From contig OZ024741.1 in NCBI GenBank assembly GCA_964016885.1, positions 51,026,001 through 51,090,000 on the forward strand: a stretch of 64,000 nucleotides of DNA, in the 5' to 3' direction. Below, piece after piece: positions 35,525 through 36,198 of the stretch. The number at the start of each line of letters is the position of its first letter. Within the stretch, counting starts at the first letter, position 1. The notes beneath the pieces are model-generated. The model was not told the origin of the DNA and did not search any database. It saw nothing but the letters and a program-made list of their open reading frames with translations. Source of the DNA: Eledone cirrhosa (taxonomy: Eukaryota). Made by a program: the position numbers and the translations under genes.

Positions 35525-35528
<4 letters not shown>

Positions 35529-36196
35529 ATATAAGCAGAACAAGTAAAATTCAACCAATTTTTCAAAATTAATATACAATTAAAATTAATCAAAATTAAA
35601 AAATATAATATAAATATTTACCTATTCAAATGGCCCTAACTGTACAGTTTCACGGTGCAAAACATTAAATATCACGAGGATATTAATGGAAAAGCAACGA
35701 TCATCAGAGAAGCATTTTCCTGTCCTAGGGTTAAAAACCCCAGGAACGACAAAATATATGACCTCACTCCAACTAATACAGGTCTAAAAGGTCGTGAAAG
35801 TGACCCGTAAATACATTGGTGTATAGTGAAGGCGGGAAATCGTAGACTAGCCGTCTATAATCGCTACTAAAAAAGATTTTTAGCAACTAAATAGATCGAC
35901 AAAGATTTATCTCTACATACTGGAGATTATTGAATAAGGTTAATATATATCTGAGGGTACAATGTACCCCCGGAAATATATAGTGTGTCTATGATTTAAG
36001 GTGGTTCTATGGTAATAATTTGATATACCAGAACTTAATATCAAGATAAGCAGAACAAGTAAAATTCAACCAATTTTTCAAAATAAATCAAAATTAATAT
36101 ACAATAAATATCCTCGTGATATTTAATGTTTTGCACCGTGAAACTGTACAGTTAGGGCCATTTGAATAGGTAAATATTTATATTATATATTTTTTA

Positions 36197-36198
<2 letters not shown>
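35525..36198 (-). mobile_element. 515-bp non-coding HHR unit plus partial direct repeat plus inverted fragment
   Basis: ATAAGCAGAACAAG occurs at 35531 and 36046. ~36107-36198 inverts ~35593-35683. Confidence 0.8.
35634..35711 (-). ncRNA. Hammerhead with extended stem II
   Basis: TTCT-CTGATGA-T.CG.TGC..CATTAA.TATC/GATA.TTAATG..GCA.CG.T-GAAA-CTGTACAG-TT-AGGG. Confidence 0.7.

Follow-up and report, generated by a model that had tools for sequence, protein, structure and literature searches.

Two ORF-less hammerhead monomers of about 500 nt, very probably non-autonomous Penelope-like element copies, in a probable octopod genome

How does an ORF-less sequence of about 500 nt with a hammerhead ribozyme come to stand at two places of one stretch of DNA, each time copied slightly more than once? 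The question concerns the units beginning at 35531 and 50181 (U1 and U2 below) of the window, i.e. the whole 64-kb stretch analysed here, which is AT-rich (GC 0.19–0.48) and laden with microsatellites. A preliminary description, whose coordinates (35525..36198) cover U1 only, had taken the two for homologous ORF-less monomers, each with a short terminal direct repeat, an inverted fragment and a stem II that differs in sequence but keeps its shape, and had proposed that they were copied just over once from a circular or multimeric RNA. The evidence set out below leads us to regard U1 and U2 as, very probably, non-autonomous mini-copies of the Penelope-like element (PLE) type, equivalent to the dispersed monomer of a non-LTR retrozyme and mobilised in trans by a PLE. 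The coordinates of the features are given in Table 1.

Homology of the two units along their length is borne out by blastn (35593–36065 with 50633–50178, 70.9% over 481 columns, E 7e-49) and by local alignment, in which 373 of 543 columns are identical and the score of 386 compares with a maximum of 55 in 200 shuffles. U1 and U2 are oppositely oriented, the ribozyme sense being minus in U1 and plus in U2, and the monomers are collinear end to end, with exact periods of 515 (35531/36046) and 475 (50181/50656), the sizes originally given. Alignment recovered both the direct repeat and the inverted fragment in each of them. The terminal direct repeat of U1 (35523–35586 vs. 36038–36100) has a core identical at 39/39 positions, and that of U2 is identical at 28/28; the inverted fragments, both on the 5' side of the sense unit, match 35687–35593 in 94 of 97 columns for U1 and 50381–50249 in 130 of 133 columns for U2. 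Segments duplicated within one insertion carry 0/92, 1/121, 0/39 and 0/28 substitutions, and since such duplicates differ by 0–1 substitution as against about 30% between U1 and U2, both insertions are recent and both subfamilies have recently been active. The units represent two subfamilies of one element that has persisted for long and is conserved at the RNA level. A profile HMM search (nhmmer with the monomer alignment) found no third member of the family in the 64-kb window, and the tandem arrays that the preliminary description had in mind are likewise absent for this family within the window; there is one full ribozyme at U1 and one at U2, rather than the two or more consecutive units, each with its own full hammerhead, by which an active retrozyme is recognised.

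Table 1. Coordinates of the two units, of their parts and of the coding elements used for comparison (positions in the window).
Feature	Coordinates	Strand	Remarks
U1 main copy	35523..36111	-	one 515-bp monomer + ~60-70 bp repeat
U1 3' terminal repeat ("tail")	35523..35586	-	ends ~111-115 nt after predicted cut
U1 5' copy of terminal repeat	36038..36111	-	5' boundary +42 to +58 after cut
U1 type I hammerhead	35628..35717	-	C3 35707; stem II 35700-35652, 49 nt, U-U closing
U1 conserved internal hairpin	35943..35981	-	compensatory changes vs. U2
U1 conserved 5' hairpin	36004..36035	-	starts 2 nt past position matching 3' end
U1 inverted 5'-truncated copy	36104..36200	+	spans distal stem II hairpin to +46; cut site intact (N17 36153)
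(TA)n target run, 3' (sense) end of U1	35495..35526	.	
(TA)n target run, outer end of U1 inverted copy	36200..36273	.	
U2 main copy	50181..50683	+	one 475-bp monomer + 28-bp exact repeat (50181-50208 = 50656-50683)
U2 type I hammerhead	50511..50595	+	C3 50518; stem II 50525-50575, 51 nt; G12 50576
U2 conserved 5' hairpin	50209..50240	+	starts immediately after position matching 3' end
U2 inverted fragment	50033..50164	-	copy of 50249-50381; internal piece, not usual 3' end
(TA)n runs left of U2	49977..50019	.	
(TA)n runs at U2 3' end	50703..50760	.	after short local duplication 50684-50702
Broken Hydra-clade PLE ORF	21946..24341	+	RT + C-terminal GIY-YIG; frameshift and stop in EN region
Coding Hydra-type PLE insertion, comparator outside the unit family	27276..30520	+	inverted copy ends +49; main end +144

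The available text of Craig et al. 2021 (PMC8557442) describes PLE insertions as carrying a partial tandem, an inverted 5'-truncated copy at the 5' end and a 30–40-bp tail at one end, with (TA)n as the target of Hydra PLEs and likewise of Naiads. This standard anatomy (pLTR/tail, inverted 5' copy and (TA)n target), which the preliminary description had passed over, is one that U1 fits exactly. All four outer ends of the two insertions adjoin (TA)n or are no more than about 20 nt away from it, 18% of the window positions being within 15 nt of (TA)4+. In 2/2 units a partial tandem, or element-derived tail, takes the place of a TSD: the terminal repeat is homologous between U1 and U2 (59/76 columns) and is therefore derived from the element and not from the target, for which reason the idea of a long TSD was abandoned. 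At their 3' ends the two main copies agree to within 2 nt on a single homologous position, directly ahead of the first conserved hairpin, a coincidence to which we attribute an estimated chance of ~1%, and the junction of tail to body is identical in both subfamilies. The 5' boundary of the 5' repeat copy of U1 is blurred by short tandem repeats, and the inverted copy of U1 is without tail. The coding Hydra insertion at 27276–30520, with its ends at +49/+144, repeats the two-end pattern of U1 (+46/+111), in which the main end reaches farther than the inverted copy. The inverted 5'-truncated copy next to the 5' end is canonical in U1 and in U2 an atypical internal piece; since the latter comes from within the unit and is separated by a short TA run, it may be a separate second insertion, or else a twin-priming product with a deletion.

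That the units are ORF-less is confirmed. On the circularised monomers the longest ATG ORF on either strand is 10–37 aa; only 1 of the 19 indels between U1 and U2 is a multiple of 3; a coding-profile HMM reaches at best 0.2–0.4 bits; and tblastn with 121 proteins as queries found no Hydra-like coding region in either unit. The single ORF with RT and C-terminal GIY-YIG by which an autonomous Hydra-clade PLE is recognised is absent from both. Just 5' of the U2 ribozyme (50476–50517, plus strand) one frame resembles the Hydra Cys linker at 0.4 bits. The likeness, seen with 9 of the 121 proteins at E ≤ 0.03, is not significant after two post hoc tests; 10 of 500 shuffles are equally high, and the frame is shifted in U1. 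It may be due to chance or be a trace of origin by internal deletion.

The monomers are instead low in GC (0.32 and 0.36) and self-paired (61–65%), without LTR, and they fold more stably than shuffled sequences (z −5.3 and −4.6). The U1/U2 consensus energy is −66.3 as compared with −37.5 ± 5.2 in 60 shuffles (minimum −52.5). Over the whole monomer there are 12 compensatory pairs vs. 7.1 ± 2.6, a marginal excess, as 3 of 60 shuffles are as high. Several hairpins outside the ribozyme are common to both units, and the conserved 5' hairpin is a candidate for the RT-initiation signal. The MFE folds of both circularised monomers join the 5' strand of stem I to the U-rich internal loop of stem II, and the resulting helix would block the ribozyme core; it may represent an off-state or mark the L1–L2 contact.

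Both ribozymes present the type I core (CUGANGA...GAAA, the A15.1–U16.1 pair and an NUH triplet), in the form of CUGAUGA, a U-U pair closing stem II, GAAAC and a palindromic stem III, with stems II and III closed and stem I open. The triplet is GUU in U1 (N17 at 35638) and GUA in U2 (N17 at 50588); stem I of U2 is weak, with an A-C mismatch at its second pair, and the U2 ribozyme failed the strict scan. Stem II begins with a proximal helix interrupted by one mismatch; a U-rich internal loop separates this from a 6-bp helix, beyond which a bulge or mismatch leads to a 4-bp hairpin. That stem II differs in sequence but not in shape is upheld with two corrections: the helices quoted in the preliminary description are present, 35 of 38 cells are paired over 19 named hammerhead pairs, and five of these pairs are compensatory (two in proximal stem II, two in middle stem II, one in stem III), but three pairs are broken, all of them in U2. 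The pairing GTCCC/GGGAT given for the distal part does not form a full helix, since only 4 bp surround a CTAG loop, and this hairpin differs between the units mostly by register and not by double compensation; its register being ambiguous, it is omitted from the pair count. Covariation as good as that observed occurs in 13 of 500 shuffles, and slid registers give 0–1 compensatory pairs, which, for two sequences, constitutes moderate evidence. The predicted active fold is 6–8 kcal/mol less stable than the local MFE. The ribozymes appear to be kept under selection at the RNA level. They probably cut multimers and are likely to act as dimers, because stem III is palindromic.

Rfam gave no hit at gathering over the whole window, and at E ≤ 10 no hammerhead on either unit, only noise of the microsatellite and hairpin miRNA type; it also misses the other hammerheads of the window, including those with a long stem II. 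A covariance model built from the two ribozymes, as had been suggested, found in the window only its training copies and the half contained in the U1 inverted copy (next E 0.18); in ten Hydra loci the same model gave a best E of 0.077, on generic hammerhead cores. A scan of GTDB genomes with the ribozyme pattern yielded 0 hits, as expected for an animal repeat. Within the window a long stem II is not unique to the units, two unrelated elements having 46–48 nt and 4 of 15 relaxed hammerhead calls having at least 46 nt. One of the side observations concerns an ORF-less unit of ~470 bp at 56790–57261 (minus strand), lying between (TA)n runs and bearing a type I hammerhead with a two-tier-like stem II of 48 nt; no sequence similarity of this element to U1/U2 was found. 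Another type I hammerhead, at 26578–26696 (minus strand), has a stem II of 46 nt and ends 51 nt after the cut at (TA)n.

Which machinery could have moved the units? The window contains 11 strict type I hammerhead calls, against 0 in each of 20 shuffles, the cores being mostly 36–144 nt upstream of a (TA)n run, and tblastn with the 121 proteins identified five Hydra-like coding regions, none of them in the units. The ORF at 21946–23979 encodes a Penelope-like RT (YRDD); it was recognised by homolog search and not by Pfam, and the octopod Argonauta hians is named in 2 of its best 8 homologs, most of the others bearing no name. On these grounds the host is taken to be probably an octopod. The longer broken ORF at this place represents the type of machinery that may have acted in trans on the units, to which it has no detectable DNA similarity. 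The region 21687–24492 as a whole is a Hydra PLE that is almost entire yet broken, one 190-bp flank being inverted, and no canonical hammerhead core was found in its remaining 3' region. The coding comparator at 27276–30520 retains an ORF remnant (27863–28836), a hammerhead at 30334 and a 649-bp inverted copy of 99.4% identity; related 3' ends occur at 2250–2559 and 58294–58580. Taken together, the features of the units suggest that a Hydra-clade PLE protein is their most likely helper, and Neptune or Naiad helpers are possible. The assignment is made from features, because an autonomous partner of matching sequence was not found by blastn or nhmmer against the five Hydra regions of the window and ten fetched Hydra loci. 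Four short motifs of the units gave no relevant match to the Craig consensi in the part of that source available.

Several further elements of the window were recorded. A second Hydra family (34556–34738, 40401–40585, 41685–43225 and 36962–37328, minus strand) has 3' ends with a hammerhead of 26–27-nt stem II and an RT that by eye resembles Hydra-1_Obim; a copy of this family may house U1 in its microsatellite-rich 3' UTR. At 5423–8730 there is a tandem array of 5.4 copies of a 615-bp unit, 99.9% identical and adjoining (TA)n, in which no ORF of at least 100 aa and no Rfam match was found; its minus strand shows half of a hammerhead-like core together with a variant of the first half, and a diverged relative lies near 25980–26300. 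This array is possibly a multimeric non-autonomous PLE of another family, and indicates that multimers do arise in this DNA. A short palindromic family (12517–12724, 37879–38074, 39624–39737) carries paired CTGATGA...GAAAC cores on both strands with a very weak stem II, like minimal PLE hammerheads. Low-complexity open frames rich in Q/N/H/S at 10668–12422 are followed by a short, unique-looking segment, possibly a host-gene exon, and a Mariner/Mos1-like transposase remnant with inverted ends occupies 48699–49610 (minus strand). The ten fetched loci (L001–L010) are hammerhead-bearing animal retrotransposons of the Hydra clade. They come from GTDB MAG contigs, where they probably represent host DNA assigned to bacterial bins, and served only as comparators.

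The following scheme would account for these observations. A source locus of at least two head-to-tail monomers would be transcribed, and, by analogy with PAc, the PLE GIY-YIG endonuclease would nick both strands of a (TA)n run. The RT would start at a fixed internal site ~95–115 nt downstream of the hammerhead cut, just before the conserved hairpin; the 3' end at this place is observed, and the mechanism is borrowed from PAc. As the sequence itself shows, the RT then went on past the uncut hammerhead site and round a complete monomer and stopped 28–70 nt into the next, an overshoot that created the terminal direct repeat. From the second nick another cDNA would be primed, starting in U1 at a further site (+45), and would yield the inverted 5' copy without tail. 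The template was thus continuous across the intact cut site and the end-to-start junction and slightly longer than one monomer, and copying began at a fixed site. Neither U1 nor U2 can release a unit-length RNA, because each has one complete ribozyme; the two loci are probably dead ends, and a tandem source is predicted elsewhere in the genome.

Within this PLE scheme the nature of the template has to be weighed. An uncleaved linear multimer has somewhat better than an even chance; a ligated circle is conceivable with a lower probability, and template jumping between cut monomers is improbable. The earlier proposal of copying from a circular or multimeric RNA therefore stands as regards a continuous template of more than one monomer, which is required, but a circle is not specifically implied, the 3' ends being fixed: internal initiation by the RT already accounts for "just over once", so that a circle is possible and not required. 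The circle-templated retrozyme, a sub-case of the PLE explanation in which multimers are cut by their hammerheads and ligated to ~500-nt circles, and the RT goes once round and stalls on its own cDNA to leave 1.06–1.13-mers, is in our opinion rather unlikely. The main copies do overshoot one monomer by only 28–70 nt in both units, the circular monomers fold stably (z about −5), the alternative helix that would block the ribozyme is conserved in both, and animal type I repeats are expressed as circRNA according to the accessible part of PMC7229834. Equal ends are however also predicted if a linear transcript is cleaved at the upstream ribozyme alone, or if twin priming takes place on a linear multimer. 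A main copy that starts where the inverted copy was primed is the signature of twin priming, as in L1. In the single case of U1 the main copy begins within ~13 nt of the start of the inverted copy (+42 to +58 vs. +45), a pattern that is simpler on a linear 1.3-mer; and PAc uses unprocessed RNA, with 0 reads ending at its cut site in the available data of PMC11167929.

The units might alternatively be nothing but what a 5' truncation or a deletion has spared of an autonomous coding PLE, namely its pLTR or 3' UTR, with no mobility of their own. In favour of this, further hammerheads of the window do form the 3' ends of coding Hydra elements, and a Hydra fragment (37145–37324) on the same strand as U1 is found 945 bp upstream of it. 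This fragment (36962–37328) nevertheless belongs to an unrelated family, matching 41943–42295, and the U1 inverted copy and a (TA)n run lie between it and U1; a link between the two was for this reason rejected. The Cys-linker likeness 5' of the U2 ribozyme, which would speak for such an origin, is interrupted by a frameshift in U1 and falls short of significance. Moreover, a truncated 3' end would not start with its own tail, while in the units tail and body join at the same point in the two subfamilies and the monomers are collinear throughout. We judge this explanation improbable, and U1 and U2 themselves speak against the possibility that such units invariably form the terminal repeat of a coding element. 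Least probable is a repeat foreign to PLEs, whether a SINE flanked by a long target duplication or a MITE or foldback DNA, or else an error of assembly in a region so rich in microsatellites. Inverted repeats and microsatellites do occur throughout the window, but this reading is largely refuted by the homology of the direct repeat between the loci, which is thus not target-derived, by the covarying hammerhead together with the excess of strict calls over shuffles, and by the 3' end common to two loci 30% apart.

The mini-PLE interpretation is of a known kind, ORF-less PLE-related hammerhead monomers having already been published, together with the suggestion that they represent non-autonomous PLEs. 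What is added is a family that seems not to have been described, in what is probably an octopod genome. The accessible literature, to which most subscription papers do not belong, yielded no account of retrozymes from cephalopods or of such a stem II, and the family may already be catalogued as a repeat. The two-tier long stem II is a modest variant of the hammerhead, but one that covaries and escapes Rfam and short-spacer descriptors, so that published hammerhead counts may be low. The insertion ends match the model of internal initiation, which makes the unit RNA a convenient substrate for asking whether PLE proteins copy circles or uncut multimers. On a more speculative and, in our estimate, unlikely reading, the units would be footprints of an abundant cephalopod circular RNA replicon, copied once round by a Hydra PLE RT from the fixed hairpin, with the two-tier stem II as a conserved switch: its U-rich loop would either dock on stem I (on) or pair with the stem I strand (off), keeping the circles uncut. 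The long-arm design recurs in unrelated families of the window (56790–57261, 26665). If true, this reading would point to a class of animal hammerheads with a long arm that current models fail to detect, and would provide a minimal natural substrate for the way in which PLEs move circRNAs.

Comparison with known systems helps to place the mini-PLE units. A spacing of ~35–50 nt or more between the core halves also characterises the deviating hammerheads of PLE-X1_sMoe and PLE-X1_sTam (File S2 of PMC8557442) and the Naiad "HHR_half_core", 35–50-nt spacings being noted there for some Naiads; these are coding elements of other clades, and no covarying two-tier helix was found described for them in the accessible part of that source. 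The pDo500 satellite of Dolichopoda cave crickets, likened here by description, is also an ORF-less repeat (463–505 bp) whose hammerhead shows compensatory changes, but it is a tandem satellite with a compact ribozyme of 49 nt (PMC2837043, as far as available). With the metazoan non-LTR retrozymes, as portrayed in the accessible parts of PMC7229834 and 10.64898/2026.07.22.740005, the units share the ORF-less, AT-rich and structured monomer with one type I hammerhead; the latter source gives consensus units of 51–972 bp, a range that includes U1 and U2, dispersed "solo" monomers and a PLE origin, and mobilisation by PLEs has been proposed for retrozymes. The U-U pair closing stem II is found in axolotl HHR_Amex2, too, in the portion of the literature available. 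In contrast to retrozymes there is no tandem array at the U1 and U2 loci, the monomers are longer than the invertebrate circles of 170–400 nt, and stem II has 49–51 nt in two tiers instead of ~4 bp and a loop, the latter two figures for retrozymes again coming from sources available in part. The units are consequently classed as a non-autonomous PLE-mobilised element and not as an active retrozyme, because neither locus has a tandem arrangement and the element is known here from DNA alone.

PAc, the Poseidon PLE of Anolis, offers the closest mechanistic parallel. In the available text of PMC11167929 it has two internal RT-initiation sites, the main one at ORF +111–118 with the cut at +26, the interval between the two sites constitutes the tail, and uncleaved RNA is the main substrate; the units similarly have fixed internal 3' ends ~90–115 nt past the cut, an AT-rich target, a second site defining the tail and copying across the uncut ribozyme. 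PAc is nevertheless autonomous and of another clade, its tail is 30–40 nt vs. ~65 nt in U1, and internal initiation has been demonstrated in vitro for PAc only, the units being known by sequence. Hydra-clade PLEs, including Hydra-1_Obim of Octopus bimaculoides, share with the units the (TA)n target, the inverted 5' copy, the partial tandem and the tail, as well as a hammerhead near the 3' end with U-U closure, a short palindromic stem III and often GUU (PMC8557442, accessible part). Indeed, U-U closure of stem II in 14 of the 26 Hydra rows of File S2 and N17=U in 10 of them, counted by eye, make both features ordinary for Hydra hammerheads. The units differ in lacking an RT/EN ORF and any sequence match to the Hydra copies examined, and in the length of stem II: their 49–51 nt are about twice the 12–26 nt of these 26 rows (again by eye), and compare with 12–24 nt in 14 calls from 7 of the ten fetched Hydra loci.
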